Source of the DNA: Endomicrobiales bacterium
GTDB lineage: Bacteria; Elusimicrobiota; Endomicrobiia; Endomicrobiales; JALOBY01
Length of the DNA stretch: 64,000 nt
Direction: 5' to 3'
Assembly: GCA_963796955.1 (NCBI GenBank)
Contig: CAWCNJ010000006.1
Coordinates: 32,001 to 96,000, forward strand
Part shown: piece after piece, positions 11,973 through 63,240 of the stretch
How the letters are laid out: the number at the start of each line of letters is the position of its first letter
Numbering within the stretch: position 1 is the stretch's first letter
Position numbers and translations under genes: made by a program
Notes under the pieces: model-generated
What the model saw: the letters and a program-made list of their open reading frames with translations, nothing else
What the model was told of the DNA's origin: nothing
Database searches by the model: none

Positions 11973-12108
11973 CCGTGTTGACGCGGCAGGCTGTTCGGTG
12001 GAAGAAATTTCCGCATGTTTGACGATCCGCTATGGGAGGCGGCCGTTAGGGCCAGCGGAGCTGGAGGTTCGGAAATTTCTGTAACCGAATAGGCTGACAC
12101 GGCGACAC
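11973..12108 (+). repeat. Long imperfect rod-like palindrome (TGTTTGA/GAGGTT core)
   Basis: Nested pairings CCGTGT/ACACGG, TTCGGT/ACCGAA, AGAAATTTCCG/CGGAAATTTCT and TCCGCT/AGCGGA. Confidence 0.7.
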
Positions 12109-12131
12109 TATATCAATTGCTTACAGTTCTT

Positions 12132-12209
12132 ATCCCGCCACTGTGAGGCTCACACGCCGTTGGCGGCGGGATCTCACGATGGGGCAATAATAACTGCAAG
12201 AGGTGTTCG
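12132..12209 (+). promoter_or_regulatory. Third copy of the rplU leader motif, upstream of obg
   Basis: ATCCCGCC...GGCGGGAT stem (compensatory relative to the rplU copies), then GGCAATAATAACTGCAAGAGGTGTTCGATG, which matches GGCAATAATTACTCCAAGAGGTGCTCCATG before rplU. Confidence 0.7.
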
Positions 12210-13466
12210 ATGTTTATTGATAAGGCACACATTTATGTTTCAGGCGGCAGAGGCGGATCGGGTTCTAACTCGTTTCGCAGGGAAAAGCACGTTCCGTTCG
12301 GCGGCCCGGATGGCGGCAATGGCGGCAAGGGCGGTGATGTATTCCTTGTGGCAGACCAGCATCTAACGACTCTGCTTGACCTTACCTATAAACCTCACTA
12401 CCGGGCCAAAGACGGTCAGCCGGGATCAGGCTGCAACTGCTACGGCCGCTGCGCTGAAGATCTTATAATGAAAGTGCCTTGCGGCACCATAGTGCGCCGC
12501 AGAGGCGAAAGCGATATAGTCGCGGACCTGAAAGAAGACGGGCAGAAGTTTTTAGCGGCTGCCGGCGGCCGCGGCGGCAGAGGTAATTCATCGTTCAAGA
12601 CCAGCCGCAACACCGCTCCCAGAATGTATGAAAAAGGCGAGCCGGGCGTGGATATAGAATTCGACCTTGAATTAAAACTTATCGCTGATGTAGGCCTTGT
12701 AGGTTTCCCGAACGCGGGAAAATCCACGCTTTTGTCTTCAATAAGCGCCGCAACGCCGAAAATAGCGGATTACCCATTTACCACGTTGTCCCCTAACCTT
12801 GGCGTTTCGCAGTACGCAGGCAAAAGCTTCGTGGTCGCCGATATCCCCGGACTTATTGAAGGCGCGCATACAGGCAAGGGCCTGGGTGATGAGTTCTTGC
12901 GTCATATCGAACGTACCCGTATACTGGTGCATATCGTCGACCTCTTCGGTTTTGACGAACATACCGCCTACCAGAATTACAAGACGATCAATAAAGAGCT
13001 TGAGCGTTATTCAAAGAAGCTCGCCTCCAAGAAAATGATAGTTGTCGCTAATAAGGCGGATCTAACGGATGCCGGCAAAAAGCTGACAGAGCTTAAACGC
13101 CATCTTAAGGGCAAAAAGATTTACGAGATATCGGCCGTGACCGGCAAAGGTATAGATGTGCTGCTGGGCGCGATAATAAAAGAGCTGGCTAAACCCGTAA
13201 TGGAGCCTCCCGTTGAAGAGCCGGTTCGCAGGTACGTTTACGAGCCGGATTTCGTGGTCACGATAGCCGAAGACGGCGCCTTCGTTGTCGGCGGTAAGAA
13301 AATAGAAAAGCTCGCAGAGATGTCGGATTTCAATGAAGACGAGTCCCTGCGCCGTTTCCAAAACATCCTCAAGAAAATGGGTGTAGAAAAAGCCATGAAG
13401 GAAAAAGGCGCCGAAGTAGGCGACCTGGTCCGCATAGGCACGTTGGAATTTGAATATCAGAAATGA
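12210..13466 (+). CDS. obgE: GTPase Obg/CgtA with C-terminal OCT domain
   Basis: Gly-rich N-terminus (GGPDGGNGGKGG), GFPNAGKS P-loop, DIPG and NKAD; follows rplU-rpmA. Confidence 0.97.
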   Translation: MFIDKAHIYVSGGRGGSGSNSFRREKHVPFGGPDGGNGGKGGDVFLVADQHLTTLLDLTYKPHYRAKDGQPGSGCNCYGRCAEDLIMKVPCGTIVRRRGESDIVADLKEDGQKFLAAAGGRGGRGNSSFKTSRNTAPRMYEKGEPGVDIEFDLELKLIADVGLVGFPNAGKSTLLSSISAATPKIADYPFTTLSPNLGVSQYAGKSFVVADIPGLIEGAHTGKGLGDEFLRHIERTRILVHIVDLFGFDEHTAYQNYKTINKELERYSKKLASKKMIVVANKADLTDAGKKLTELKRHLKGKKIYEISAVTGKGIDVLLGAIIKELAKPVMEPPVEEPVRRYVYEPDFVVTIAEDGAFVVGGKKIEKLAEMSDFNEDESLRRFQNILKKMGVEKAMKEKGAEVGDLVRIGTLEFEYQK

Positions 13467-13502
13467 AGAACTCGTATTTCTTAGGTTGAAATAAGTGGCA
13501 AA

Positions 13503-15494
13503 ATGACGATGAAAAACTCCCTCGATCCCTCTTTAACAAAAGAGGGAAGAACTATTGAGCAGGGCAAGTCGCAAGTTCCCCTCTTTACTAAAGAGGGGTT
13601 AGGGAAGTTAGGGCGTTGGCCGTTTATTATTTTTTTTGTTGCGCTGGTTTTGCGCCTGGTTTATCTGCTGCAAATTCAGCATACTCCCCTTACTGATTTC
13701 CTTTTAGTAGACTCCAAATTTTATCATGAATGGGCAAAAAGTATTGCGGCCGGCGATTGGCTGGGCGGAACGCGGACCTTTGTTATGGCGCCGCTGTATG
13801 CCTATTTTCTGGCCTTAGTTTATAGCATTACCGGCCCGGTTTTCCAGAACGCGCTGGTTTTGCAGATATTGATCGGTTCATTGTCTTGCGTGTTAGGTTT
13901 TTATGTGACAAAAAAGTATTTCGGCACACAGGCCGCGATCATCGCCGGCATCTGCTGCGCTGTGTACCCCGTTTTTATTTTTTACGACGGCACACTTCTG
14001 AAAGAAAACCTGATGGTGTTCGTTTCGCTCCTCTTTCTTTTTTTGTACCCGGTTGAGCCGGTCCGGAGCCCGGAGCCCGGAGCCCGGATTAACGGCAACA
14101 GACTTATAATATGCGGTATGCTTCTCGGGCTGAACGCACTGATGCGGCCTACGATACTTTTGATGCCTCCTTTGATCGTTGCTTTGGAATACCCTCAGTT
14201 GCGCAGGCTCGCCTTTAAGCGTCTGGCGTGGCTGGTGCTCGGCATTGGGGTGATAATTGCACCTGTTGCCATGCGTAACAAATATGTCGGCGGTGAATGG
14301 GTGGTTACGGTGGCTTCGGGGGGAATGAACTTCTGGACGGGAAACAATCCGGCGGCCCATGGGGCTTATAACGGCGCACCCTTCCTTACCAGCGAAGAAC
14401 CGCAGTTTGAGGATGAAGATTTTAGAAAAGAGGCTTCCCGTCGCAGCGGGCGAGAGCTGACGGAAAGCCAGGCTTCCGACTATTGGTATGGGCAGGGCGT
14501 ACGTTTTCTGGTAAACAACCCGGGGCGGGCCGTATGGCTTTTGTGGCGCAAAACACTGGGCTTCTGGCATACAGTTGAATTACCCTCGGACCTCAATTAC
14601 TATTTTGCACGGGACTTTTCGCCGCTGCTGCGTTTGGATCTTCTTTCGTTCGGCATTTTCGCGCCGCTGGGCATTATGGGCATGGTCCTGGCGTGGCGAA
14701 AATATCCCGCGAGCCGTCTATTGACGCTGTTCGTTGCGGCGAATTTTCTTGCAAGCCTTATCTTTTTCAACTCCTCACGCTACCGCCTGCCTGTCGTTCC
14801 GGTCGTCACAATTTTCGCGGCTTTCTTTATCATGCATGTGTACGATACGTTCTTTGTGCGCAGGCAAAATCTCAGCGTCGAGCTGGATCTGAAATTGTTC
14901 GCCCCCTTGATCGCGTTGCTGGTCCTGTGCAATTATCATGACACGATGCTTAACGCTATCGCCCGGACACGCTTAAGCTACCGCAATGCGTCGGCCATTT
15001 ACCTGAATGCCGGTAACGTTCAGCGGGCCGCGGATATGGCGCAGCGCGCTGTCGCGATAGACCCTGCATACGCCCTCGGCTGGCAGCAGTATTCTAACGC
15101 GCTTTTGAGGCTGGGACGCACCGACGAGGCGAAGGCGGCTTTTGAGCGGGCCGCGGCCTTAGATTCAGTACATCGCGATGCCCGTTTTGAACGGTCGCTT
15201 CCAAAAACAGGGCAAGAACAATTTGAGGCTCTGCTTAAACAATATCCGGGCAAAGAGAAAGAGATACACAACAACCTCGGCCTGATGTACCTTAAACGCG
15301 GAGAATTTGACGCGGCAGAAAAGGAATTTCGCAGCGCGATAGCCATTGATAGCAGGTATGAAAAAGCATATTATAATCTGGGGCTGGTATTCGAAAGGCG
15401 GAAAGATACGGCGCAGGCGCGCGCGTACTATGAAAAAGCGCTGGCAATAGATCCCAATTACGAAAAAGCGAAGACGAAGCTTGGCAGACAATAA
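13503..15494 (+). CDS. Polytopic GT-C (ArnT/PMT-like, family 39) glycosyltransferase with C-terminal TPR repeats
   Basis: Many TM helices, DSKFYHEWA, APLYAYFLA, GGMNFWTGNNP and SRYRLP motifs; TPR consensus HNNLG...AYYNLG. Confidence 0.8.
   Translation: MTMKNSLDPSLTKEGRTIEQGKSQVPLFTKEGLGKLGRWPFIIFFVALVLRLVYLLQIQHTPLTDFLLVDSKFYHEWAKSIAAGDWLGGTRTFVMAPLYAYFLALVYSITGPVFQNALVLQILIGSLSCVLGFYVTKKYFGTQAAIIAGICCAVYPVFIFYDGTLLKENLMVFVSLLFLFLYPVEPVRSPEPGARINGNRLIICGMLLGLNALMRPTILLMPPLIVALEYPQLRRLAFKRLAWLVLGIGVIIAPVAMRNKYVGGEWVVTVASGGMNFWTGNNPAAHGAYNGAPFLTSEEPQFEDEDFRKEASRRSGRELTESQASDYWYGQGVRFLVNNPGRAVWLLWRKTLGFWHTVELPSDLNYYFARDFSPLLRLDLLSFGIFAPLGIMGMVLAWRKYPASRLLTLFVAANFLASLIFFNSSRYRLPVVPVVTIFAAFFIMHVYDTFFVRRQNLSVELDLKLFAPLIALLVLCNYHDTMLNAIARTRLSYRNASAIYLNAGNVQRAADMAQRAVAIDPAYALGWQQYSNALLRLGRTDEAKAAFERAAALDSVHRDARFERSLPKTGQEQFEALLKQYPGKEKEIHNNLGLMYLKRGEFDAAEKEFRSAIAIDSRYEKAYYNLGLVFERRKDTAQARAYYEKALAIDPNYEKAKTKLGRQ
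13515..13609. repeat. REP-like paired hairpin element embedded in frame in the 5' end of the GT-C gene
   Basis: TCCCTCTTTAACAAAAGAGGGA and CCCCTCTTTACTAAAGAGGGG hairpins bracketed by AACTCCC...GGGAAGTT. Confidence 0.7.
14063..14088 (+). repeat. Heptamer tandem repeat (CCGGAGC)x3+ inside CDS
   Basis: CCGGAGC CCGGAGC CCGGAGC CCGGA, encoding RSPEPGAR between TM segments. Confidence 0.8.
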
Positions 15495-15516
15495 AGAAAG
15501 TACTACAATAAATATA

Positions 15517-15894
15517 ATGAGATCATCTCCTAAATACTGGCTTCCGGTACTTCTCTGGTGCAGTTTGATATTTTATCTTTCCAGTATACAGCATCTTGAT
15601 ACGGGCTGGGGCATGTCCGACTTTATACTGCGCAAATGCGCGCATATGTTCGAATACGGGGTGCTGTATTTGTTTTCACGCCGTGCATTTGCAAAAACAA
15701 CCTCTCTGCCTCCGACGGCGGCGGCATTCGTCTTCACGGTGCTGTACGCCGCCAGCGATGAGTTCCACCAGTCTTTTGTACCCACCCGCGGGCCTTCCGT
15801 GAAGGATGTATTGATAGATTCGACCGGCGCCTACATTACGCTGCGTCTGAACGGCTGGTGGCTGGCGCGCCAACCGTTAAAAACTTCACGATGA
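15517..15894 (+). CDS. vanZ: VanZ-family membrane protein
   Basis: RKCAHMFEYGVL and YAASDEFHQSFVPTRGPSVKDVLID motifs; ATG at 15517 preferred over the overlapping TTG at 15481. Confidence 0.85.
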   Translation: MRSSPKYWLPVLLWCSLIFYLSSIQHLDTGWGMSDFILRKCAHMFEYGVLYLFSRRAFAKTTSLPPTAAAFVFTVLYAASDEFHQSFVPTRGPSVKDVLIDSTGAYITLRLNGWWLARQPLKTSR

Positions 15895-16742
15895 GAACAC
15901 GCTACCGCACTATTGCCTGTTTCCTGCTGCCTATTGCCTGTTGTTTATCCGGTTGCGGCGGTCCCGAGCGTTTGTTCAACAAAGCTCAGGCGCTTGAAGG
16001 CAAGGGCTATTTTGTAGAAGCCGGCATAACCTATGATAAACTCGCAAAAAAATATCCCGCTGCCGCCCTTGCGCCCGAGGCGCTTTATCGCATTGGCCGC
16101 ATTTACCAGAAAAAATTAAAGTTGTTCTCTTATTCCACGCGGTACTATCTTTCCGTTATAGAAAAATATTCTTCCGCTCAGCAGTGGACGGCTCTTGCGG
16201 GACAGGGTTTGCTTACCTCCCCCGATTACTTCCCGCTGCACGCCGGTAATTTCTGGATAGAAGGCGATTCTGATACCGGCGGCGTAAATATGCGCGCCGA
16301 GTGGAACTGCGGGGTCATCTCATCCGGGACTTGGGTGATAGCCCGTCGTATATCAGCCGGCTCGCATTTTGTAAAGGAAATAAAGCAATATTACCGGATA
16401 AAGGGCTCTCAGCTGTGCCAGTTCTCCAGCCAGCAGGAGGATACGGGTGTTGTCATATTGTCATACCCTTTTGAAAAAGGCCGCAGCTGGCGGACCGTGA
16501 GCGATGGTAAATGGATGGAATACCGGGTGGAAGCTACGGATGAGCGGATAGCTGTAAAGGCAGGCAGCTTCCCCGGCTGCCTTAAGATAGGCGAACGCAA
16601 CCTTGCCTACCCGGGCTCAGTAAAATACAATTACTATGCCCCTGAGACCGGCTGGGTGCTTACAACCACCGCCCTGGTCGGCGGCACCGAACACCGCAGC
16701 ACCGAACTGTTGAGCTGCAAGGTGTTCCCGGAGGAATTTTAA
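15891..16742 (+). CDS. TPR-containing lipoprotein
   Basis: Lipobox LSGC; TPR-like APEALYRIGRIY; C-terminal VKAGSFPGCLKI...YYAPETGWV beta domain; ATGA overlap with vanZ. Confidence 0.7.
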   Translation: MRTRYRTIACFLLPIACCLSGCGGPERLFNKAQALEGKGYFVEAGITYDKLAKKYPAAALAPEALYRIGRIYQKKLKLFSYSTRYYLSVIEKYSSAQQWTALAGQGLLTSPDYFPLHAGNFWIEGDSDTGGVNMRAEWNCGVISSGTWVIARRISAGSHFVKEIKQYYRIKGSQLCQFSSQQEDTGVVILSYPFEKGRSWRTVSDGKWMEYRVEATDERIAVKAGSFPGCLKIGERNLAYPGSVKYNYYAPETGWVLTTTALVGGTEHRSTELLSCKVFPEEF

Positions 16743-17107
16743 TGGCCAGGGTCAACGAAGATTCCAACTGGCGCAGGGCGGAGCGCTTTAACGCAGCAGC
16801 CCGGATAACGGTGACCGCCGGCAAAGACAAGTTCTCCGGTATCATGCGGGACATCAGCCTGAAGGGAATATCCTTCAGGAGCGAAGATCTGATAGAAACG
16901 GAAGAGACCTGTCTTTTTGAGATCGCGCTGCCCGACGGCCCCGTGGTGAAGACGAAAGGCATCTTCATGTGGAAGAGACCGCTGGGGCGCGAACATCTCT
17001 ACGGTGTGGATTTCACCAGGATCGGTTTTTTCGCCAACCGGCGGCTAAAAAAATGGCTGGCCCATCGCGCCGAGATCTTCAAAGGGAAAGTCTGGAAGCC
17101 GAATTAG
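16742..17107 (+). CDS. PilZ domain protein
   Basis: RRAERF and DISLKG motifs (RxxxR, DxSxxG). Confidence 0.85.
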   Translation: MARVNEDSNWRRAERFNAAARITVTAGKDKFSGIMRDISLKGISFRSEDLIETEETCLFEIALPDGPVVKTKGIFMWKRPLGREHLYGVDFTRIGFFANRRLKKWLAHRAEIFKGKVWKPN

Positions 17108-17937
17108 AAGAGAAATACCGGCCCTGCCATAGTGAAGGAGTTCTTCTCGTATTTATCGCCGAAATAATCATATTTTACCGAGATGCCGATAGCGCGTGAG
17201 AGCATGAAGTCAAGGCGGTTGCGCGCGGTGAACTGCGCTTCATCCCCGTTCTTAAAGCGCGTATAGAACTTGGTGTCAAAACGGATAAAGTGCAGGAACT
17301 CCAGTTCCGCTTTTATGCCGACCGACATATAATCCAGCACCACAGTGGAGTCGGCGCTGAAACCGTTGCGGTTGCGTCCCGCGATAGGCATACCCTCGGA
17401 AGCAACCGAGGTGTCCACCCGCTCATTAAAATAACCGAGAAAGGGCATGATGCGCTGTTCGCCGAGCGCAAAGGCAACGCCGGCGATAGGATGCAGGCCC
17501 CAGACGGAAGTGTTCACGTTCAACGAGGCGAGCGGTGAAACGTCGCTGCCGGTGACGTGCGTAAACACGTTTATGTAGTCGGCGTAAAAGCCTACCGCCG
17601 GCCGTACCGTTTGTCCCCTGTTAAAATAATAGATCCCGTAGAAAAGATAGCCGTTCTCAGTACTCTTATCAAGCTTGGAGTAATGCCCCATGCTGCCGAC
17701 GGTAAAATCAGGGGTCAGGTACAGCATATTCATCGCGTAGAGCGGCCCTGAATCAGAGAGGGTGTGCGCTGAGCCCGGGGGTGAATCGTAGTTAATATCG
17801 CTTATGGTGTAACCGCCCATCGGCGAAATAAGGAAGAAACTTCTGTCCCGCCCCTCCTGCTCCTGCGCAAAAACATACGTGCACCCAATTACCAAAACCG
17901 CTGCAACCCATCCCGCCGCCGAACGAAAACGTGCCAT
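17104..17937 (-). CDS. Putative outer-membrane beta-barrel protein
   Basis: Signal peptide ending VFA, alternating aromatic beta-strands, C-terminal Phe. Confidence 0.6.
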   Translation of the reverse strand: MARFRSAAGWVAAVLVIGCTYVFAQEQEGRDRSFFLISPMGGYTISDINYDSPPGSAHTLSDSGPLYAMNMLYLTPDFTVGSMGHYSKLDKSTENGYLFYGIYYFNRGQTVRPAVGFYADYINVFTHVTGSDVSPLASLNVNTSVWGLHPIAGVAFALGEQRIMPFLGYFNERVDTSVASEGMPIAGRNRNGFSADSTVVLDYMSVGIKAELEFLHFIRFDTKFYTRFKNGDEAQFTARNRLDFMLSRAIGISVKYDYFGDKYEKNSFTMAGPVFLF

Positions 17938-17963
17938 GTACCCCTCCCTCAGTTTTTATGTTT

Positions 17964-18758
17964 TCAACTATAGCTGTGCAGACCCCTCGTTACAAAATTC
18001 AACCCTACGAACGTGAACAGAATGATCCCAAAACCGCATAGGACCAGATACGCGGCTTTTCTGCCGCTCAGCTCCCTAAACCACCGCAGGTGCAGGTACG
18101 CCAGATAAAAAAGCCAGGTGATAAGGGCCCAGGTCTCTTTAGGGTCCCAGCTCCAGTAACTGCCCCAGGCGGTATTGGCCCAGACCGCGCCGGTGCTGAG
18201 CCCTATGGTCATGAATATGAAGGCGAATGCGATCACGCGGTAGCCGAAGATATCATCAAGGCGCTCGCTGAGAATGTTGTTGTTTTGTTGTGAGGAGGAG
18301 GCGAAAAGATAGATGATGCCGCCGCTGAAAGCTAAGCCCGCCGCGCCGTAGCCTACCAGATAGGCACTGACATGTATCAGCAGCCAGTTGCTTTTTAACG
18401 CGGGCAAAAGGGGTTTCGCTCCCGGATCCAGCAATGCCGCGTACCCCAGGGACAGCAGAGCCATGAGGGCCGGCACTTCGATCGGGAACGTCAGCCGGTA
18501 GGCGAACTCAAAGAACGAAACGCACAACGTCAGGCAGAAAGAAAAGAGTATCAACGTTTCGCCGAGATCCGCCATAGGCGGGTGGCCGGTAACGAACCAT
18601 TGCGCCGCAAGCCATACGGCGGTGCTCATGGTTCCCAGGGTAAACAGCGGTTTAACCAGTTTTGAGCCGTGTCTATAGCCGAACGCGTTACCGGCTATAG
18701 AAAGTACCATCACAAAAAAATAACAGAACAACGCCGCATTTATAAGAGCTTCACGCAT
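17964..18758 (-). CDS. ccsA: System II cytochrome c biogenesis protein CcsA/ResC
   Basis: WWD motif GAVWANTAWGSYWSWDPKETW, conserved His residues, C-terminal GLHSY. Confidence 0.93.
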   Translation of the reverse strand: MREALINAALFCYFFVMVLSIAGNAFGYRHGSKLVKPLFTLGTMSTAVWLAAQWFVTGHPPMADLGETLILFSFCLTLCVSFFEFAYRLTFPIEVPALMALLSLGYAALLDPGAKPLLPALKSNWLLIHVSAYLVGYGAAGLAFSGGIIYLFASSSQQNNNILSERLDDIFGYRVIAFAFIFMTIGLSTGAVWANTAWGSYWSWDPKETWALITWLFYLAYLHLRWFRELSGRKAAYLVLCGFGIILFTFVGLNFVTRGLHSYS

Positions 18759-19257
18759 TATCCGACCCGCGTTCTAATTTTCTAACCGGCGATCTTTCAT
18801 ACACAGATAAAATGACCCCGGCATTTAAAAGCAGAAGGCCGGCAAAGACCAGCGGCATTCCAGGATCTTTCACCACGTCAATGCCGGACCAGGACGGATC
18901 CTGCGGATCATACGAGGCCTGATAAAAAGAATATCCCTTATAAGAAACAGGATGGTTTACCGTTAAAACACGTGACTGTTCCGGGAAGCCTTTATCCGTT
19001 ATTCTCAGCGAGCTCTTAAAGTTGTCGATCGAGCCGTTGGGGGCCTTGTCGATCTTGAAATCTTCCAGGAATATTGTAAAGCCCAGACCCTTCGTCACCA
19101 TGCCGTCGCGGTATCTGTCGCTTCCTGTTCCGGCGCGCAGGAAGACCGTGCCGCGCTCGCGCAGGCAGTACGTCCACAAACCGCCCGTTATCAAAACAAC
19201 AACGGCAGCATGGCTGACTATTTTCCCCAGGGTGCTTCCCGTACGGATATCGGTCAT
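18751..19257 (-). CDS. resB: Short ResB/CcsB-like cytochrome c biogenesis protein
   Basis: VNHPVSYKGYSFYQASY and VVKDPGMPLVFAG motifs; overlaps ccsA. Confidence 0.75.
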   Translation of the reverse strand: MTDIRTGSTLGKIVSHAAVVVLITGGLWTYCLRERGTVFLRAGTGSDRYRDGMVTKGLGFTIFLEDFKIDKAPNGSIDNFKSSLRITDKGFPEQSRVLTVNHPVSYKGYSFYQASYDPQDPSWSGIDVVKDPGMPLVFAGLLLLNAGVILSVYERSPVRKLERGSDNA

Positions 19258-19386
19258 AGGGCTATAGTAACAATAAGGAAGCCTTTTTCCCGTAGCGTGT
19301 TTCTTCTTGGGGCAGACTTTTTTCTCCCCTTGCGGGGAAAAGAGGGGGGAGTTAGGATTAAGTGTAGTGCGGGTGGATTTGTAGGG

Positions 19387-21498: not shown

Positions 21499-21504
21499 AT
21501 AATT

Positions 21505-21533
21505 ATTATACCGCAAAGCGGGGCGGTTGTCAA
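21505..21533 (-). promoter_or_regulatory. Consensus sigma70 promoter, probably leaderless PBP1A mRNA
   Basis: TTGACA, 17 bp, TATAAT on the minus strand; the ATG at 21498 lies 6 nt downstream of the -10 box. Confidence 0.65.
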
Positions 21534-21562
21534 AAAACTACGTATATTATATAATTACTCCC

Positions 21563-23647: not shown

Positions 23648-23648
23648 T

Positions 23649-24560: not shown

Positions 24561-24571
24561 GGCACGTCCTT

Positions 24572-34097: not shown

Positions 34098-34219
34098 AAA
34101 TATTCCGTTGAAGTTAGAAGTAGAAGTAAGAAGTTATGCGGCCGCGAAGCCAGCCGCGACGTTGTTGTTGAGGTTAGATGTATTTGTTCATAGCGAAAAA
34201 GTATCTGTTTTATATTAAG

Positions 34220-34320
34220 TTGAGTAGCCCCGTGGCCCGCAGTCCGAGGAATAACGAGGACGAGTCTTGCGGGGGGCGCGAGTCGGTGAGCGCCCTGGCA
34301 CCACTGGCTGGCAAGCTCAA
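34220..34320 (+). repeat. Structured palindromic element upstream of tRNA-Gln
   Basis: TTGAG/CTCAA ends, CCCGCA/TGCGGG stem enclosing GTCCGA...CGAGTC, GGGCGC/GCGCCC hairpin. Confidence 0.4.
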
Positions 34321-34347
34321 TGGGTTGTTATAGATTGCAGTTTCGCT

Positions 34348-34421
34348 TGCCCCGTGGTGTAACGGTAACACAATCGCCTCTGGAGCGGTCATTCATGGTT
34401 CGAATCCATGCGGGGCAGCCA
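34348..34421 (+). tRNA. tRNA-Gln (anticodon CUG)
   Basis: Acceptor TGCCCCG/CGGGGCA, anticodon arm ATCGC-CT-CTG-GA-GCGGT, T-loop GGTTCGAATCC, encoded CCA. Confidence 0.96.
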
Positions 34422-39974: not shown

Positions 39975-40979
39975 ATGCCCAGACAAGGACGAATAAACAT
40001 TGAAGGTGGAATATATCACGTAATTCAGCGAGGAATAGAGCGAAAAGCGATATTTCATGATGATGCTGACCGTGAGATGTTTCTAAGCAGATTATCTGAA
40101 GGACTAAAAGAAACCGGGCACAAATGTTATGGTTGGGCGCTGATGCCCAATCATTTTCATTTATTGATAAGAACCGGCGCAAAACCATTAAGCGACCTGA
40201 TGCGGGTATTGTTAACGGGGTATGCGTTGTGCTTTAATAAGAAATACAAGCGAAGCGGCTATGTGTACCAGGGAAGATATAAATCAATATTGTGCCAGGA
40301 AGATAATTATCTGATGGAATTGGTAAGATATATACACCTAAACCCTCTGAGGGGAAAGATCGTAAAAGATATGCAGGAATTGAAGGCGTATAAATGGACT
40401 GGCCATAGCGTAATAATGGGTAACAGAAAGGCACCATGGCAGAGCAGCGACGAAGTTCTGGGATATTTTGGAAAGAAGAAAAGTGAAGCTGTGAGGGAAT
40501 ATGAAAAATTTGTAGCGCAGGCAAAAGATATGCCAAGGCGGGAAGATTTGACTGGCGGCGGCTTGATAAGGAGCGCGGGCGGTTGGAGCGGATTGATGGA
40601 CTTAAGGCGGTCAAAAGAGCGTTGGATGGCAGATGAACGAATCTTGGGTGATGGTGATTTTGTAGACAGAGTATTAAATACAGTTGAAGAAAAAGTTAAC
40701 CGGAAGGAACAGTTACAACGCGAAGGCTGGAATAAAGAAAAACTGGTAGAGCAGGTGTGTAAGCTAACAGGCATAACGAAAAAAGAAATATACAGATACA
40801 GCAAGAACAGTAAAATAGCAGAAGCGAGAAAACTTCTTACATATTGGGGAAACAAGGAATTAGGCATGAGTGGAATGGAGCTGGCAGAGATGCTAGGAAT
40901 CACAAGGTCAGCAGTTTCACAAAGCATAAAACAAGGGGAAGCAATTGCCGCAAGGTATGGTCAATACTTACATACTTAA
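39975..40979 (+). CDS. REP-associated tyrosine transposase-like HUH/Y1 enzyme with C-terminal DnaA_C/TrpR-like HTH
   Basis: YHVIQRG, LMPNHFHLL (HUH), QGRYKS and YIHLNP motifs; C-terminal HTH (GMELAEMLGITRSAVSQ). Confidence 0.9.
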   Translation: MPRQGRINIEGGIYHVIQRGIERKAIFHDDADREMFLSRLSEGLKETGHKCYGWALMPNHFHLLIRTGAKPLSDLMRVLLTGYALCFNKKYKRSGYVYQGRYKSILCQEDNYLMELVRYIHLNPLRGKIVKDMQELKAYKWTGHSVIMGNRKAPWQSSDEVLGYFGKKKSEAVREYEKFVAQAKDMPRREDLTGGGLIRSAGGWSGLMDLRRSKERWMADERILGDGDFVDRVLNTVEEKVNRKEQLQREGWNKEKLVEQVCKLTGITKKEIYRYSKNSKIAEARKLLTYWGNKELGMSGMELAEMLGITRSAVSQSIKQGEAIAARYGQYLHT

Positions 40980-45583: not shown

Positions 45584-45586
45584 CAT

Positions 45587-51934: not shown

Positions 51935-52166
51935 CGGGGGCTTTATGGCATATCTGAAAAAATTAAGTGACTTTTGTTTTGAATATTTTCTGGGAAAATT
52001 GTTTTTCGGCGGATCGTTCTACCTGTATAAAAGCCGGCATAACAGTATTCGCAAATAAAAAATATGATATAATTGAAACTTGGCAGGAGTTCTATATTTA
52101 AAATCACTTGAATGATGGGTGATTTTTTTTGCTTTAAAAATCCGTGCCGCCGGGGAACGTATAATC

Positions 52167-54724: not shown

Positions 54725-54725
54725 C

Positions 54726-55652: not shown

Positions 55653-55653
55653 T

Positions 55654-56301: not shown

Positions 56302-56305
56302 AGGT

Positions 56306-57748
56306 ATGTTACTCAGTATAATTTTCCTGTCATTTTTAACCGCCGCGGCTGCCGGTCTTATGGCCAAAAGCAGGTCGCGCCTGGAATACGGTTCGCTTGC
56401 CGCTATAATTATTTCACTGGCCGCTTCATTCGCAATAGCGTTCAGGGTCGCATCCGCAGGCCACTATTCGCCGTTCTCTCTCTTCCATGTGGATGCCTTC
56501 GGCGCCGTATTGCTGCTGGTAATTTCCGTCGTAGGGTGCTCAACGGTTGTCTATTCCATACCGTACCTGCGTAAAGAAACTGAAAAAGAGATCATCGGTT
56601 TCAGCCGGGTAAAACAGTATTACGTGTTATTGAATTTATTTTTTATCGCCTTGTATCTGGCGGTTTCGGCCAGCAGCCCCATAGTTGCTTTTATAGCGAT
56701 AGAGGCGACAACGCTTTCAACGGCGCTGCTGGTAAGTTTCTATAACAAGCCGTCCACCGTCGAGGCTGCCTGGAAGTATGTGATAATCAATTCCGTAGGA
56801 TTGTTGCTGGGATTCTTCGGCACCCTGCTGTATTTCTCTCCTTTCAGGCTTGCGGCGATGAACGGCGCCATCAGCTGGCAATTCCTTGCTGAAAACGCGA
56901 CGCGCATGGATCCGCTGACCGCCAAGATCGCCTTCGTCTTTGTGATCATCGGCTACGGCACCAAGGCCGGTTTCGCCCCCATGCACACCTGGAAGCCCGA
57001 TGCCTATAGCAAGGCGCCCTCCGCCCTTGGCGCCATGCTTTCCGGCGCGGTGCTTCCGGTTTCCTTTCTGCTGCTGCTGAAATTCAAACGGATAACGGAT
57101 ATCGCTATCGGCATAACGTTCAGCCAGCATTTAATGATCGCGTTCGGGCTGCTGTCCATAATCGTTGCCGCGGTGATCATGTTCAGCTCAAATAATTATA
57201 AACGGCTTCTGGCCTATTCCAGCATAGAGAACGCAGGCGTCATGGCGCTCGGTTTTTCGTTCGGCGGCCTGGGAGTCTTTGCGGCCATCCTGCATTTGAT
57301 ATACCATTCACTGGTAAAAGTGGTAACGTTCTTCGCTGCCGGGAACTTGCTGCTGAAATACAGCTCGTCTAAAATTAATAACGTTAAGGGCGCCTTGAAA
57401 GTATTGCCGGTAACCAGCGTGCTGTTTATCGCGGGATTTTTGGTGGTTACGGGTCTTCCGCCGTTCGGCATATTCCTTACGAAAATGCTGATCCTCAGCG
57501 CGGGCATTAAGATCTACCCCGTTGCGGCTATAACCGCTCTCATTTTCATGACGCTTGTTTTTATCGGGTTCCTTAAACACGTTTCGGCCATGTTCTTCGG
57601 CGCGCCGCCCGCCGGTATAGAGGCCGGCGAAGGTTCGGTCTGGCTGGTAGTGCCTTCCTGCGTGTGCCTGGCTTTGATTCTGTTGTTAAGTTTTTATATG
57701 CCGCCGTTCCTGTATAAACTAATACGCGAGAGCGCCTTAAGGTATTGA
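56306..57748 (+). CDS. hyfF: HyfF-like antiporter-type membrane subunit
   Basis: EATTL, EAAWKY, GYGTKAGFAPMHTWKPDA and KRLLAYSSIE motifs. Confidence 0.9.
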   Translation: MLLSIIFLSFLTAAAAGLMAKSRSRLEYGSLAAIIISLAASFAIAFRVASAGHYSPFSLFHVDAFGAVLLLVISVVGCSTVVYSIPYLRKETEKEIIGFSRVKQYYVLLNLFFIALYLAVSASSPIVAFIAIEATTLSTALLVSFYNKPSTVEAAWKYVIINSVGLLLGFFGTLLYFSPFRLAAMNGAISWQFLAENATRMDPLTAKIAFVFVIIGYGTKAGFAPMHTWKPDAYSKAPSALGAMLSGAVLPVSFLLLLKFKRITDIAIGITFSQHLMIAFGLLSIIVAAVIMFSSNNYKRLLAYSSIENAGVMALGFSFGGLGVFAAILHLIYHSLVKVVTFFAAGNLLLKYSSSKINNVKGALKVLPVTSVLFIAGFLVVTGLPPFGIFLTKMLILSAGIKIYPVAAITALIFMTLVFIGFLKHVSAMFFGAPPAGIEAGEGSVWLVVPSCVCLALILLLSFYMPPFLYKLIRESALRY

Positions 57749-59271
57749 TCATGACAACTATGAAACCGGAACAAATTATCGAAGTACCGGCCGCTGATAT
57801 TCAAAACGTTATCAGCCGCATCCGCGATGAAAAGCAACTGCGCCTGAAACTGCTTACCGCTACCGACGAACGGTCGCAGCAGGGCCATTTTAAGATCTGG
57901 TACATTTTCTTAAACCCGGAAAGCCGGAGCTGGCAGATATTTTATATAACGCCCACCGGGACGGAATTCCCTTCGGTCGCACATATCCTCCATGAGGCCT
58001 GGGACTACGAAAGGAAGATACAAACATTTTTCGGTCTTACACCGGCCGGCCACCCGGACGCACGGCCTCTCCTGCTGCATGAGAATTGGCCTGAGGATCT
58101 CTTCCCGCTCAGAAAAGATTTCCCGTGGCAGACACGGCCGCCGGCAGCCAATGGCACTTATCATTTCCAGAAAGTTAAGGGCGAAGGGATTTATGAAGTT
58201 TCCGTGGGTCCGGTACACGCCGGCATAATAGAGCCGGGTTATTTTAAGATCAGCGTTGCGGGCGAAATGATGGTGCTGCTGGAGCCGCGGCTTGGCTACA
58301 CCCATAAAGGCAGCGAAAAACTATTTGAGACGCTGCCGCTTGCCAAAAAGATAAAGCTGTCGGAAAAAATATCAGGCGACAGCTCGTTCAGCCATTCGCT
58401 GGCTTTTTGCCAGGCGCTGGAGCAGCTTGCCTCCATAACCGTTCCCCGGCGTATGCGCTATCTCAGGGTAATTTACGGTGAGTTGGAGCGGTTGGCAAAC
58501 CACCTGGGCGATATCGGCGCCCTGACGCTTGATTGCGGCTATAATTTCGGCGGTGCGCAAAACGGCCGGCTGCGCGAGGTGCTGATGCAAATGAATGAAC
58601 GCCTTACCGGCAGCCGTTTTCTGCGGGGCGTGAATGTTGTCGGCGGTGTTACCAGGGATATTTCCGCTCAAGACGGTGAGAGGTTAGGTAAGGAGCTGGC
58701 AGGTATCGCGGTAGATTTTACCGAAATAATCGAAGTCATGAAAAATAGCTCGTCTCTTCTGAACCGGTTAAAGGGAGCGGGCGCGCTTCCGCACCGGCTT
58801 GCTTTCGACCGCGGTGTCCTTGGCGTAGCCGCCAAAGCGCTTGGCCTGGAGTACGACACGCGCCTTGATATGCCCTACGCCGCCTATGATGAACTGGCGC
58901 CGGAAAGGATAGAACCCGAACTGAGCGGCGATGCCTACGCCAGATTCAGTGTGCGCGTTAAAGAAGTTTATACCTCAATAAAACTTATCCAGGAGGCCCT
59001 GCGCACCCTGCCTGCAATGGACGGGCCGCTGCCGCAAAATATCGTTTTCGAAAAAAATTCCTTCGCGCTCGGCTGCGTTGAAGGCTGGCGCGGGGAAATA
59101 CTCTATTTTGTTGCCACGGACTCTCAGGGTACTATCTGCCGCGTCGCCCCGCGGGATCCGTCTTTCATCAACTGGCCGCTGCTGAAAAATTCGGCCTTCG
59201 ATAACATTATCCCCGATTTCCCGCTGATAAATAAAAGCTACAATCTGTCGTATTCCGGGAACGATCTGTAG
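57745..59271 (+). CDS. HyfG/NuoCD-like large subunit lacking Ni-binding CxxC motifs (Ehr large subunit)
   Basis: GPVHAGIIEPG, GYTHKGSEK, ELERLANH and RDPSFINW; L1 position reads EKISGDSS, L2 position reads NKSYNLSYSGNDL. Confidence 0.88.
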   Translation: MIMTTMKPEQIIEVPAADIQNVISRIRDEKQLRLKLLTATDERSQQGHFKIWYIFLNPESRSWQIFYITPTGTEFPSVAHILHEAWDYERKIQTFFGLTPAGHPDARPLLLHENWPEDLFPLRKDFPWQTRPPAANGTYHFQKVKGEGIYEVSVGPVHAGIIEPGYFKISVAGEMMVLLEPRLGYTHKGSEKLFETLPLAKKIKLSEKISGDSSFSHSLAFCQALEQLASITVPRRMRYLRVIYGELERLANHLGDIGALTLDCGYNFGGAQNGRLREVLMQMNERLTGSRFLRGVNVVGGVTRDISAQDGERLGKELAGIAVDFTEIIEVMKNSSSLLNRLKGAGALPHRLAFDRGVLGVAAKALGLEYDTRLDMPYAAYDELAPERIEPELSGDAYARFSVRVKEVYTSIKLIQEALRTLPAMDGPLPQNIVFEKNSFALGCVEGWRGEILYFVATDSQGTICRVAPRDPSFINWPLLKNSAFDNIIPDFPLINKSYNLSYSGNDL

Positions 59272-59295
59272 AAATAGCGCATAGGAGAAGCCATT

Positions 59296-60957
59296 GTGTT
59301 GCGACCGAAATTGTTCGATGTGTTCAAGTCGTACGACAGTAAAAAGTTCACGAAAGACGCGGTAGCCGGGGTGGTGGTGGGCATCGTCGCCCTGCCGCTG
59401 GCCATCGCGTTCGCCATCGCCTCCGGCGTAACGCCTGATAAAGGGCTTTACACCGCGATCGTAGCCGGTTTTCTTATCTCGGCGCTGGGCGGCAGCCGCG
59501 TGCAGATAGGCGGCCCGACGGGGGCCTTCGTGGTTATCGTCTATGGTATTATCCAGCAGCACGGCATCGACGGCTTGCTTGTGGCGACGATCATGGCCGG
59601 TATCATACTGATGATCATGGGTTTTGCCAAACTTGGCGGTGTCATAAAATTCATTCCCTACGCGGTAACGGTGGGCTTCACCCTGGGCATAGCTTTTTTA
59701 ATTTTTACCGGGCAGATAAGCGATATGCTGGGTCTCGGCCTGAGAGGCCTGCCTGCGGATTTTTTTGATAAGATGGGGATCGTTATGCGGCATGTGCCGC
59801 AATTCAGCATTTCAGCCGTTTGCATAGCCCTGGCGACTATGGCAACGATCGCCCTGTGCGGCAAAATATCCAGGCGCATACCCGGCTCGCTTATCGCTAT
59901 CATCGGCACCTCCGCCGCCGCCTATTTCCTGAAGCTGCCGGTTGAGACGATCGGTTCGCGTTTCGGCGCCATACCGCATACCCTGCCAATGCCCGTGGTC
60001 CCGCACATAAATTTCAATATGGTACGAAGCCTGATCAACCCCGCTATCACTATCGCCATGCTCGGCGCCATTGAATCGCTGCTCTCCGCGGTAGTAGCCG
60101 ACGGCATGATAGGCGGACGGCACCGTTCAAACATGGAGCTTATAGGTCAGGGCGTAGCGAACATCGTCTCGCCCCTGTTCGGCGGCCTGCCGGCGACCGG
60201 CGCTATCGCCCGTACCGCCACGAACGTTAAAAACGGCGGTCGCACACCCATAGCCGGTATCATTCACGCCATCACGTTGTTGCTGCTCATGCTGTTCTTC
60301 GGCGGCATGGCTGGGCGCATACCGCTCGCCTGCCTGGCAGGTATTCTTATGGTAGTGGCCTATCACATGTCAGAGTGGCGTTCAGCGGTCTCCATCGTAA
60401 AAACCGCCCGCACCAGCGCTTTGGTACTCATTGTCACCTTCATACTGACGGTGGCAGTAGACCTTACGGTTGCTATAGAGGTTGGCCTGTTGCTTGCGAT
60501 CGTGATATTCATCCGCAGCATGAGCATGCACACGAATATCGCCATGATCACGCCCGAAGAAGAGGATCCCGTGGCGGAAACGGATTTTGACACCACCCAG
60601 ATACTGCAAACCGTGCTGCCAAAAGGCGCCGTGCTGTATGAAGTTAACGGTCCTCTGTTCTTCGGCGCCGTCTACAAATTCCGCGAGGCGCTTGAAGGCA
60701 TAGAAAAACCGCCCAAAGTGCTGATAGTGCAAATGGAACAGGCGCCCATGATAGACGCTACCGGTACCCATCTTTTGGAAGAGACATTTCGCTCCATGAG
60801 CGCGCATGGCACCGTTTTCGTTGTCTGCTGTATGCGTCCCGCCGTACTGAACATGTTCAAACGCGCCGGCCTCTTCGACTATCTGCACGATGAGAACATC
60901 TGCGAAACCCTTGCCTGTGCCATAGCCCGCGCCCGCGCTATTTGCCTTTCTAAATAG
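59296..60957 (+). CDS. SulP/SLC26 anion transporter with STAS domain
   Basis: LPLAIAFAIASG, GGPTGAF, ESLLSAVVAD, TGAIART, GPLFFGA and IDATG motifs. Confidence 0.93.
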   Translation: MLRPKLFDVFKSYDSKKFTKDAVAGVVVGIVALPLAIAFAIASGVTPDKGLYTAIVAGFLISALGGSRVQIGGPTGAFVVIVYGIIQQHGIDGLLVATIMAGIILMIMGFAKLGGVIKFIPYAVTVGFTLGIAFLIFTGQISDMLGLGLRGLPADFFDKMGIVMRHVPQFSISAVCIALATMATIALCGKISRRIPGSLIAIIGTSAAAYFLKLPVETIGSRFGAIPHTLPMPVVPHINFNMVRSLINPAITIAMLGAIESLLSAVVADGMIGGRHRSNMELIGQGVANIVSPLFGGLPATGAIARTATNVKNGGRTPIAGIIHAITLLLLMLFFGGMAGRIPLACLAGILMVVAYHMSEWRSAVSIVKTARTSALVLIVTFILTVAVDLTVAIEVGLLLAIVIFIRSMSMHTNIAMITPEEEDPVAETDFDTTQILQTVLPKGAVLYEVNGPLFFGAVYKFREALEGIEKPPKVLIVQMEQAPMIDATGTHLLEETFRSMSAHGTVFVVCCMRPAVLNMFKRAGLFDYLHDENICETLACAIARARAICLSK

Positions 60958-61061
60958 CAGACCGGACCGGGTGAAGTTATCAACGGCCGGGTTTTTTGCC
61001 GAGTTCGGCATATTTATTGTATAATGTCGCTTCAATCGCAACTACTCTCAGGAGGACGTAC

Positions 61062-62735
61062 ATGGCCAAGATACAGGTGTCAGAATTACAGATGGAACGC
61101 TCAAAATTTAAGCCGGTTTTGCCGGCTATACTTAAGAATGGGGCCGGCTCGGTTGTGCCGAAAAAAGGGAAGATCACTAAAAGCATTTCCGACCACGAAA
61201 CAGTGAATGCCTTGTTCCCTGCAACCTACGGCTTGCCGATGATAGGGTTTTCGAAAGGCAAAAGCAATGTCGGCAAAAAGGCCGTTAAAATCGGCGTGGT
61301 TCTTTCAGGCGGGCAGGCGCCCGGCGGGCATAATGTGATAGCCGGCCTTTACGACGGCCTGAAAAAAGCCAACCCAAAAAATAAGCTTATCGGTTTCCTG
61401 GGCGGGCCTTCGGGCATTCTGGATAACAAATGGAAAGAAATTACCGGGCCTTTGATGGACGAATACCGCAATACCGGCGGTTTTGATATTATCCAGTCCG
61501 GACGCACTAAAATAGAAACCCCTGAGCAGTTCGCGCTTACAAAAAAAAATATCCTGGCCAATAAGATAGATGCTCTTGTGGTTGTCGGCGGTGACGATTC
61601 CAACACCAACGCCGCCCTGCTTGCCGAGTACTTTGTTAAAGAAGACACCGGCGTCAGCGTTGTAGGGGTGCCCAAAACGATAGACGGCGATCTGAAGAAT
61701 GATGCGATCGAAACCTCATTTGGTTTTGATACCGCCACCAAGATCTACGCCGAGATGGTGGGCAACGTTTGCCGCGACGTAAATTCCGCCCAGAAGTACT
61801 GGCACTTTGTGCGTCTTATGGGCCGCAGCGCCAGCCACATTACGCTGGAAGTCGGCTTTAAGACCCAGCCAAACGTTGTGCTTATAGGCGAGGAAGTGCT
61901 CTCCAAACAGCTGCGCTTGTCGCAGGTCGTGGAAACCATCACTGACGTTATCATCGCCCGCGCTGAAAAGAAAAAGAACTTCGGCGTCGTGCTGGTGCCC
62001 GAAGGTTTAATAGAGTTCGTGCCGGAAATGAAAGAACTAATTTCGTCCCTGAATGATGTGCTTGCCGATAACGAAGAGGCGATCAATGCCGTAAACCACA
62101 TGGATGACAAGCGGAACATCGTTTACGCCAAACTCCCTTCGCATCTTTCAGCGCTTATGAAGTCTTTGCCGGATGCGATCGAAGCCCAGCTGATGCTGGA
62201 ACGCGACCCGCACGGCAACGTACAGGTCTCTCTTATTGAGACGGAAAAATTGCTTATAGAGATGGTGAGAGAACGCCTTATGCAGCTCAAGAAACAGGGT
62301 GTATACACCGGCAAGTTCGCCGCCATAACCCATTTCTTCGGCTACGAAGGCCGCTGCGGCGCACCCAGCAACTTTGACGCGAATTATACGTACGCCCTCG
62401 GCTACAACGCCGCCGTCCTTGCGTTGAACGGCTTTACCGGCTATCTTTCATCAGTGCGCAAGCTTACCAAACCCGCAGCCCAGTGGGAATGCGGCGGTGT
62501 GCCCCTTACCATGATGATGAACATAGAGCGCCGCAAAGGCAAAGAAAAGCCGGTGATCCAAAAAGCCCTTGTCCGCCTCGACGATGCCCCCTTCAAAGAG
62601 TTGGTAAAGAACCGCGAAACCTGGGCTAAGACCGAAAGCTACCTTTTTCCCGGCCCCATCCAGTACTTCGGCCCCGCCGTTGTCACAGAAATGACGACGA
62701 AAACATTACAGTACGAACAGTCTGGAAAGAAATAA
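61062..62735 (+). CDS. pfp: Pyrophosphate-dependent phosphofructokinase (long clade)
   Basis: SGGQAPGG, GGDDSNT, PKTIDGD, MGRSASH and FGYEGR motifs; AGGAGG RBS. Confidence 0.95.
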   Translation: MAKIQVSELQMERSKFKPVLPAILKNGAGSVVPKKGKITKSISDHETVNALFPATYGLPMIGFSKGKSNVGKKAVKIGVVLSGGQAPGGHNVIAGLYDGLKKANPKNKLIGFLGGPSGILDNKWKEITGPLMDEYRNTGGFDIIQSGRTKIETPEQFALTKKNILANKIDALVVVGGDDSNTNAALLAEYFVKEDTGVSVVGVPKTIDGDLKNDAIETSFGFDTATKIYAEMVGNVCRDVNSAQKYWHFVRLMGRSASHITLEVGFKTQPNVVLIGEEVLSKQLRLSQVVETITDVIIARAEKKKNFGVVLVPEGLIEFVPEMKELISSLNDVLADNEEAINAVNHMDDKRNIVYAKLPSHLSALMKSLPDAIEAQLMLERDPHGNVQVSLIETEKLLIEMVRERLMQLKKQGVYTGKFAAITHFFGYEGRCGAPSNFDANYTYALGYNAAVLALNGFTGYLSSVRKLTKPAAQWECGGVPLTMMMNIERRKGKEKPVIQKALVRLDDAPFKELVKNRETWAKTESYLFPGPIQYFGPAVVTEMTTKTLQYEQSGKK

Positions 62736-62746
62736 GACGATTAATT

Positions 62747-62803
62747 AACAAACAACGAACCGCGTGAGACCTGTTTAGGGTTTTGCGCGGTTTTGTTTTT
62801 GTT
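62747..62803 (+). terminator. Intrinsic terminator after pfp
   Basis: AACCGCG / CGCGGTT stem with flanking A-rich and T-rich tails. Confidence 0.6.
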
Positions 62804-62821
62804 AGATGAAATAAGGTCGGT

Positions 62822-63009
62822 CTTGGCAATTTTGTACTACGTAAATCCGGCTAACCATTTCGGGATTGCGATCTTCGCCGGCTCAGAACTTGCCCCACAC
62901 CCCCATTCAAAATACTTAGGAGTGGGGCTTCAAACAGCTGAGCCGAAGGAATGAAGATCGCAACCCTCATTGGCGGTTAGAAGGATTTACTCCGCACAAA
63001 ACAGCCAAG
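62822..63009 (-). repeat. Rod-like palindromic element (CTGTTTGA/AAGTT core on minus strand)
   Basis: Nested pairs CTTGGC/GCCAAG, GTAAATCC/GGATTTAC, CTAACC/GGTTAG, TTGCGATCTTC/GAAGATCGCAA, CGGCTCAG/CTGAGCCG and GCCCCAC/GTGGGGC. Confidence 0.8.
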
Positions 63010-63034
63010 CCCTCCTATCTCTCGCAGAAAAACC

Positions 63035-63240
63035 GCGTCTCAGTGGATCCGGGTTTCCTGCAGGTCCGAACTCGATGCGTCAATGAGAGAGGTATTTTCG
63101 TTCCTTCGGGAGCGCCTGTTTGAAACCCCGCTCCGATATCTGTTGAATTTGGGGGTGCGGGGGAGAGTTCGCTCCCGCAGAAAATGCCGAACGAAATGCA
63201 TCGACTGAGGCCAGCGGGAAATCCGGATCCACTGAGACGC
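63035..63240 (+). repeat. Rod-like palindromic element with perfect 18-bp terminal IR (CTGTTTGA/GAGTT core)
   Basis: GCGTCTCAGTGGATCCGG / CCGGATCCACTGAGACGC; inner TCGATGC/GCATCGA, CGGGAGCG/CGCTCCCG and CCCCGC/GCGGGG. Confidence 0.82.

Follow-up and report, generated by a model that had tools for sequence, protein, structure and literature searches.

The 64,000-nucleotide (nt) stretch of DNA analysed here (hereafter, the window), positions 32001-96000 of contig CAWCNJ010000006.1 (contig C6 below) of an Endomicrobiales bacterium (assembly GCA_963796955.1; 2.1 Mb in 11 contigs, 81% complete), carries long, rod-like palindromes that share an asymmetric internal loop, and raises the question of what these rods are and what acts on them. 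Our results identify them as copies of a structured repeat that is non-coding, intergenic and present many times over, and show selection for both its structure and the sequence of its loops in a single folded strand. The reading we favor, with a probability of roughly one half, is that the repeat is mobile-element-like and acts as a folded RNA strand whose GA-rich, kink-turn (k-turn)-like loops are read by a putative factor. A preliminary description of the window had proposed a functional RNA or single-stranded DNA (ssDNA) motif; the core of that proposal is upheld by covariation (46 of 59 pairs), an excess of G-U pairs and the conserved loops, while its specific analogies, to HUH/REP (repetitive extragenic palindromic) substrates and to attC sites, were less well supported.

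Three folded rods in the window

Two of the rods form a head-to-head doublet, in which an A-type rod (E1; 63035-63240, + strand, model core 63046-63229) is the right arm and a B-type rod (E2; 62822-63009, - strand, model core 62826-63005) the left arm, and the two 5' ends of this divergent pair are separated by a spacer of only ~25 nt (63010-63034, read directly). The third rod, E3, is short (+ strand; core 11985-12098, full hairpin 11973-12108). When the minimum-energy fold of each element was compared to those of 200 shuffled sequences, none of the shuffles was as good as E1 (63030-63245, +; -116.9 kcal/mol, z -10.1), E2 (62815-63015, -; -100.0 kcal/mol, z -9.0) or E3 (11968-12112, +; -64.3 kcal/mol, z -5.0). 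All three folds place the same asymmetric loop just below the apical hairpin, with TGTTTGA on the 5' side and GAGTT, AAGTT or GAGGTT on the 3' side (63117-63123 and 63165-63169 on the + strand in E1; 62930-62936 and 62887-62891 on the - strand in E2; 12016-12022 and 12064-12069 on the + strand in E3), so the equivalent structural position claimed for this loop in the preliminary description is borne out. The columns of this core loop are invariant across the alignment of A and B copies. The alignments also revealed a second conserved loop beyond the one described earlier, CAAUGAG on the 5' side and CGAAAUG on the 3' side, plus a UUCCUUCGG stretch; in E1 (+ strand) it lies at 63081-63087 (CAATGAG) and 63192-63198 (CGAAATG), and E3 is without it.

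E1 scores 89.4 bits with model R1, 122.4 bits with the general model R2 (at 63067-63209) and 56.2 bits (E 5.5e-14) with the cross-phylum model R3 (see below), and E2 scores 195.1, 114 and 64.6 bits, respectively; E3 reaches 15.7 bits with R2 (E 0.11 in the window search). Four elements had been claimed for the window, and E1, E2 and E3 stand, the last only as a distant relative. The fourth (34220-34320) does not, since it folds at chance level (34215-34325; z -1.3, with 21 of 200 shuffles as good; z -0.7 for the other strand) and has no model match at E<=10. Directly downstream of this rejected element there is a tRNA gene (34348-34418, +; 58.8 bits with Rfam).

Copies elsewhere in the genome

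A covariance model built from six E2-like (B) copies gave 16 matches in the genome, reaching E 1e-45, which correspond to ten loci (six B and four A copies) matched on the proper strand and six reverse-strand echoes of the B palindromes. The genome-wide search did find additional copies, and this genome holds ten clear copies in two subfamilies (A and B) plus two copies of a short third type. By blastn, E2 is 85-90% identical to five other loci over 161-177 nt and E1 is 74-83% identical to three other copies; therefore, the earlier statement that the stems share little sequence was an overstatement. E1 and E2 themselves are 75% identical over their 77-nt cores. E3 is tied to the family because its homologue at C10:50257-50351 scores 26 bits (E 0.006 genome-wide) and carries the canonical CAUGUUUGAG...CGAGUUCGG loop; the blastn match between the two covers 32 nt (87.5% identity, E 1e-4). 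Judged from these sequences, E3 and its homologue are probably the short third type (C) of the family, with weak membership.

The genome contains three doublets, all with facing 5' ends: the window pair, C1:2537-2714(-) with 2746-2926(+), and C7:74187-74386(-) with 74463-74643(+). Three solo B copies occupy gaps between same-direction genes, in the sense orientation.

Selection on one folded strand

Pooling A and B copies in MAFFT and RNAalifold gave a poor consensus, and model-based alignments were used instead. In one of these (A4; the four A copies aligned with seven others, drawn from five further genomes of the order), 91.5% of cells pair, compared to 35-52% when the partners are slid and with none of 500 shuffles as high, and 46 of the 59 pairs change on both sides. 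Across four alignments, G-U pairs outnumber A-C pairs in the helices by 3 to 9 fold (26:3, 29:8, 118:31 and 97:32), which indicates that the named strand is the folded strand. These counts come from model-fitted alignments, which lean toward structure; given the effect size and the slid controls, we nevertheless judge the modeled helices convincing.

The typical unit, based on 52 copies from seven genomes, is ~125 nt long and reads CCCC..GRGCYG..AUGAG..AUUUUU..GGCGAGGA-CUGUYUGAG-hairpin-CGAGUU-CCGCAGCC..AAAAAU..CGAAURGCYC..GGGG. Within it, a core of ~30 nt (GGCGAGGACUGUYUGAG - hairpin - CGAGUUCCGCAGCC) is very strongly conserved across phyla. The sequence of the first loop of the rod is not kept across phyla, and a helix stands in its place in some copies of one relative's genome (G006). 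The apical loops are without an AYGGAY or GGA motif. Both rod loops have GA on both strands beside a helix and a 4-nt bulge, as judged by eye. A kink-turn consists of a C helix, a short bulge, tandem G.A / A.G pairs and an NC helix, and is often bound by an L7Ae-family protein; by analogy with that definition, the rod loops may be called k-turn-like.

Alternatively, in line with the ribozyme-like core suggested in the preliminary description, the repeat might be a self-cleaving or otherwise catalytic RNA, with the two rod loops docking as they do in the hairpin ribozyme. Such an RNA could account for two conserved loops in one rod, for a core that is very strongly conserved across phyla, and for copies that are numerous and sporadically distributed like those of small ribozymes, but no ribozyme family in Rfam matches the element, and a loop that is not conserved across phyla and that a helix can replace in G006 counts against this reading. 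We consider a catalytic RNA very unlikely.

A pseudoknot and predicted triple helix in relatives

In most relatives, among them copies in all the other genomes examined, an H-type pseudoknot lies directly 3' of the rod, in the order stem 1 5' side, UUUCUUUU, stem 2 5' side (..UUUUCUUUG), stem 1 3' side, 2-3 nt, and stem 2 3' side (CAAAGAAAA..), and it is usually followed by a GC hairpin. The U-rich tail motif was found nowhere in the Endomicrobiales genome, where the basal stem is longer. Among 39 tails, the pseudoknot pairs in 90.0% of cells, compared to 43-59% when slid, and 13 of its 18 pairs change on both sides. The first loop of the tail is a parallel Hoogsteen match for the second stem's purine strand, and the three strands change in step in other lineages (UUUCUUCU with AAAGAAGA, UUCUUUC with AAGAAAG, UUUUCUUUC with AAAAGAAAG and UUCUCUUU with AAGAGAAA). 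This three-way change predicts a U.A-U / C+.G-C major-groove triple helix in the tail. One subfamily of near-identical G006 copies shares sequence only as far as the end of the purine strand, and transcripts that stopped at this point would have their 3' end capped by the knot.

Some copies carry an extra hairpin of 40-60 nt between rod and knot (loci L066, L067, L069, L072, L073 and L075 in G006; L080 and L081 in G008), which points to modular build-up. REP-like palindromes (GGAUUCCAGA..UCUGGAAUGACGGC) recur ~45-90 nt upstream of one rod subfamily of G006 (L066-L075), and a similar palindrome replaces the post-knot GC hairpin in some copies of the same genome.

Distribution across genomes and phyla

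With the model built from B copies only, the family was found in 5 of 104 genomes of the order. For the phylum as sampled, R2, the general model, detected it in 20 of 151 genomes, with 20, 13, 13, 12 and 10 matches in single genomes even though only 21 candidates were scored per genome. The usual copy number of a carrier ranges from several to over 20. When one genome per species was scanned for exact occurrences of GAGGACTGTYTGAG-N15-45-CGAGTTCC, at least 124 stretches were returned; the matches listed include Burkholderiales, Gallionellaceae, Nitrospirota, Myxococcota, Campylobacterota and Actinomycetota, as well as Bacteroidaceae, Lachnospiraceae, Omnitrophota, Patescibacteria and others, and several of them lie at contig ends. 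R2 matched 53 of the 80 exact-motif loci examined (60 matches in total), and a few of the remaining loci (e.g., L147 and L148) are inside long open frames and are probably chance.

R3 was built only from the copies of other phyla, with this genome left out. Because it derives from foreign copies alone, its recovery of seven copies of this genome at E <= 5.5e-14 connects the window rods to this cross-phylum family without circularity. In a sample of 150 other Pseudomonadota, with only about 20 candidates scored per genome, R3 detected no copy. The distribution across phyla is thus sporadic. One small genome (1.4 Mb, 99% complete) that has neither a Y1 transposase nor a reverse transcriptase keeps at least 13 diverged copies.

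Genomic context and orientation

The neighbours of the copies are diverse, unrelated housekeeping genes, and no recurrent partner is found among 99 open reading frames (ORFs) in the phylum, 106 flanking ORFs in other phyla and 18 in this genome. Based on 52 copies in the phylum and crude ORF calls, 36 of 49 copies have a convergent gene downstream; between same-direction genes, 25 copies are antisense and 10 sense, while convergent genes flank a further 11 copies and divergent genes flank 3. The close doublets, 11 in number, are without exception divergent (three in this genome, one in G003 and seven in other phyla), with 25-135 nt between the facing 5' ends. Upstream flanks are AT-rich, with TAnnnT-like boxes near the start of the rod, and ~45 nt of upstream sequence is common within subfamilies. 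Three families have a copy at the junction between the convergent genes for RNase E/G and class I/II aminotransferase (L065 in G006, L081 in G008 and L084 in G001).

Alternatively, the repeats might be a host-serving family of genes for trans-acting small RNAs, each copy an independent and very stable transcript with the rod closing its 5' end and, in relatives, the triple-helix knot capping its 3' end. The loops would bind or titrate a conserved protein, as has been proposed for TwoAYGGAY RNA with Csr/Rsm (see below), and copy number would grow by ordinary duplication. Independent transcription units are consistent with the convergent downstream genes and the antisense excess, and with the upstream boxes and shared upstream sequence, while service to the host fits both the 1.4-Mb genome that keeps its diverged copies in spite of lacking Y1 and reverse transcriptase genes and the junction occupied in three families. 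However, the sporadic distribution across phyla, the near-identical copies and the contig breaks at copies speak against it, the apical loops offer no AYGGAY or GGA, 25-135 nt is little room for the two promoters of a doublet, no promoter consensus was found around the window doublet, and neither a Ro60 nor an L7Ae partner occurs in any of five carrier genomes. On balance, we regard small-RNA genes as possible but unlikely.

A further explanation would be ordinary terminators or chance palindromes with a heptamer shared by chance. Copies are intergenic and often at gene ends, and a GC hairpin follows the tail in relatives, as terminators would have it; against this stand the fold z scores of -5 to -10, the covariation, the model matches down to E 1e-45, the scarcity of U-runs (most copies have none following) and the many copies that are antisense to their neighbours. 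Near the doublet, a simple scan returned a single terminator-like site, an intrinsic-terminator-like hairpin at 62757-62793 (+) outside the element, and because it belongs to the upstream gene (60996-62732, identified as phosphofructokinase-family by a Pfam PFK match) the rods are not plain terminators. The preliminary description was right to set ordinary terminators aside, and we find this explanation, chance included, hardly credible.

As for individual neighbourhoods, the copy at the RNase E/G - aminotransferase junction has its orientation flipped in one of the three families. Copies adjoin a dinB-type polymerase gene in two genomes (L102 in G002, and L001 in this genome, C1:2537-4308), and in G002 a lexA-dinB pair is bracketed by two convergent copies.

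Candidate partner genes and the nature of the folded strand

In another alternative, the element works as ssDNA: one DNA strand would fold into the rod and its pyrimidine-type triplex tail while it is replicated or transferred, and would serve as substrate for a recombinase or transposase (HUH/Y1 or another enzyme), in the manner of REP/REPIN repeats with RAYT, IS200/IS605 ends, attC sites or BoxC/PIT repeats. Y1 transposase (PF01797) genes are indeed present in this genome (4 matches), G006 (5) and G002 (15), and the distance to a copy is 486 nt for one of them; intrastrand triplexes of the T.A-T / C+.G-C type are well known from DNA, and BoxC/TMECO repeats of E. coli were shown to fold in this way in vitro (PMC4666352); and the strand bias relative to neighbours (25 vs. 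10) could reflect leading versus lagging strands. On the other hand, Y1 genes are absent from two of the five carriers, G001 and G038, in spite of their at least 13 and at least 12 copies, and of 11 Y1 loci only 1 lies within 1.5 kb of a copy. The two arms do not represent copies of a single REP, their loops being asymmetric and conserved in that form, and Holder et al. (PMC4666352) report no in-vivo triplex signal for TMECO. We therefore rate an ssDNA element as rather unlikely, and the HUH/REP-like substrate suggested in the preliminary description loses support with the Y1 results. REP/REPIN repeats with RAYT were likewise rejected, since no consistent Y1 gene flanked by repeats emerged from these carriers and loci. 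One of the four Y1 matches of this genome falls in the window, where an ORF of 334 aa (39975-40979, +) contains an IS200-like Y1 transposase domain (PF01797 at 40011-40337); no rod adjoins it.

The other candidate partners are mostly missing as well. Neither the Ro60 (TROVE, PF05731) gene that would accompany a bacterial Y RNA, usually as its neighbour, nor an L7Ae-family gene is present in any of the five carriers, and the flanks of B copies show no clear target-site duplication of the kind that a miniature inverted-repeat transposable element would leave.

Comparison with known systems

No Rfam family matches the element: at gathering thresholds the window gave only tRNA, the doublet region gave only noise at E<=10, and nine loci from other phyla gave nothing at E<=0.1. 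Known self-cleaving ribozymes, 6S RNA and signal recognition particle (SRP) RNA were rejected, with no Rfam model match, and 6S RNA, SRP RNA, the hammerhead, the hairpin ribozyme, group II intron domain V, box C/D and the retron msd were also dropped by eye. Searches of the literature by the letters of the core motif or by words found nothing on the element.

The closest likeness is to TwoAYGGAY RNA (Rfam RF01731; Weinberg et al. 2010), in which a common basal stem bears two hairpins, each with an AYGGAY terminal loop. The Minerva preprint (bioRxiv 10.64898/2026.09.22.753630) describes an extended form in Pseudomonadota whose basal stem is long and which also has a 3' pseudoknot; copy numbers there have medians of 11-23, doublets are divergent in 68.4% of cases, the expansion is called 'mobile-element-like', and the AYGGAY loops are proposed as Csr/Rsm sites. 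The rods share with TwoAYGGAY the long basal stem and a sporadic occurrence in multiple intergenic copies, and their close doublets are mostly divergent (11 of 11 here vs. the 68.4% given there). RF01731 matches occurred in 11 of the 151 sampled Pseudomonadota; the tail of the rod relatives (stem 1, pyrimidine loop, stem 2 and GC hairpin) follows the RF01731 match in four of six loci inspected, and the rod model gave weak same-place, same-strand matches in 6 of 24 TwoAYGGAY loci (13.8-20.2 bits). In contrast, the head of the rod is a single hairpin above the CUGUYUGAG / CGAGUU loop, not two AYGGAY hairpins; copies in this genome are without the 3' pseudoknot, which relatives have; and RF01731 had no match in this genome (E<=1), in the window or in the nine loci of other phyla (E<=0.1). 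Since relatives of the rods carry the same tail, and divergent doublets and weak rod-model matches are found as well, we place the window elements with the TwoAYGGAY class. The best reading is that they are a head-variant of a known, unexplained class of mobile-element-like structured repeats.

The tails of relatives also resemble the BoxC/PIT/TMECO repeats of E. coli and other bacteria, intergenic intrastrand-triplex repeats whose folding has been shown in vitro and for which no in-vivo triplex signal is reported in TMECO (Holder et al. 2015, PMC4666352; see also Hoyne et al. 2000, as cited in PMC4666352). Both are short, highly conserved and strictly intergenic, with three consecutive triplex-capable blocks (in the tails of relatives) and no link to the function of neighbours. 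They differ in that the relatives' tail is U-rich, pyrimidine-type, placed within a covarying pseudoknot and joined to a 125-nt rod. The window rods have no three consecutive triplex-forming blocks of this kind.

Likeness to other repeats is more superficial. ERIC/IRU, Correia, bcr1 and REPIN-type repeats are rod-like imperfect palindromes of 100-200 nt, present in many copies, intergenic, in either orientation and sometimes co-transcribed in operons, and each is restricted to one genus or family, several with known mobilising enzymes or terminal repeats. Unlike these, the rod family keeps ~30 core nt across phyla and asymmetric loops, and no transposase link was found. Similarly, attC sites share with the rods a folded single strand, conserved unpaired bases, variable stems and a variable apex, but the rod copies are dispersed or head-to-head rather than in same-direction cassette arrays, and their loops are conserved in sequence. 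The attC R-box (GTTRRRY-type) signature was not seen by eye, and an integrase was not searched for. The preliminary analogy to attC substrates is thus abandoned on account of the arrangement of the copies.

A proposed mobile-element-like repeat acting as folded RNA

We return to the reading favored at the outset, a mobile-element-like repeat acting as a folded RNA strand. The folded strand would be RNA transcribed from the element itself or co-transcribed with neighbouring genes, the latter being expected for the three solo B copies, whose flanking genes both run in their own direction. The conserved loops, with GA on both strands, may be the surface for a putative factor that copies or moves the element or is titrated by it, and expansion would be mobile-element-like, dependent on functions that the element does not encode.

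Several results weigh against this reading. The tests made fit RNA and ssDNA alike, and the alignments behind the helices lean toward structure, as noted above. No RNA sequencing runs containing 62600-63400 of the window were found, and a sigma-70 promoter scan of 62500-63500 returned no sites, with the 5' ends of the doublet there only ~25 nt apart. With respect to mobility, the searches turned up neither a target-site duplication nor an empty site nor a mobilising gene. The Y1 transposase is missing from two carriers, and reverse transcriptase (PF00078), on which a repeat similar to a short interspersed nuclear element (SINE) would depend, is absent from four of five. Metagenome contigs from four DNA runs were short pieces with no joint across the element and no empty site; a single contig, of 260 nt, reaches across the doublet junction, and the flank of one B-like copy differs. 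Finally, the RNase E/G - aminotransferase locus looks like long retention, not recent hopping, because three families hold a copy there.

A broader and more speculative extension, which we regard as possible but unlikely, is that the rod core and, in most lineages, the triple-helix pseudoknot represent an undescribed class of protein-less mobile element in at least 10 phyla, with TwoAYGGAY as one head-variant. Such an element would multiply via its folded single strand, in a manner either driven by host enzymes or self-catalysed.

What gives the repeat its interest is the range over which a ~30-nt core and a three-strand knot persist, reaching from Elusimicrobiota-like bacteria to Burkholderiales, Saccharibacteria and Actinomycetota, in an element that matches no Rfam family. 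The link to both TwoAYGGAY and BoxC/PIT suggests that several orphan repeats are modules of one system, that is, interchangeable heads on a common tail. The covariance models, the defined core, the doublet geometry and the natural tail-less variants of this genome provide handles for finding the copying or binding factor. In practical terms, copies break assemblies and can be mistaken for terminators or small RNA genes.

Other sequences in the window and genome

A second repeat family of ~100 nt, AACUCCCCUC..UCCCCUCUUG-AACN-CAAGAGGGGA..CUUCCCUCUU..AAAGAGGGA..GAGGGAGUU, occurs in this genome at C5:5190-5225(+), C6:14050-14085(-), C7:84411-84446(-), C7:85024-85059(-) and C7:85506-85541(-). Three of these five sites are within 1.1 kb on C7 and none is next to rods; the C-rich blocks could form a BoxC/TMECO-like intrastrand triplex. 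There are also three near-perfect palindromes of ~200-250 nt with folding energies of -157 to -172 kcal/mol (C6:187991-188250, C1:614-873 and C4:381326-381585), which are without the family loop motif on the better-folding strand, C1:614-873 having one heptamer on the other strand. Lastly, the window opens with a giant open frame of at least 3243 aa (3-9734, +) that runs off the window start.

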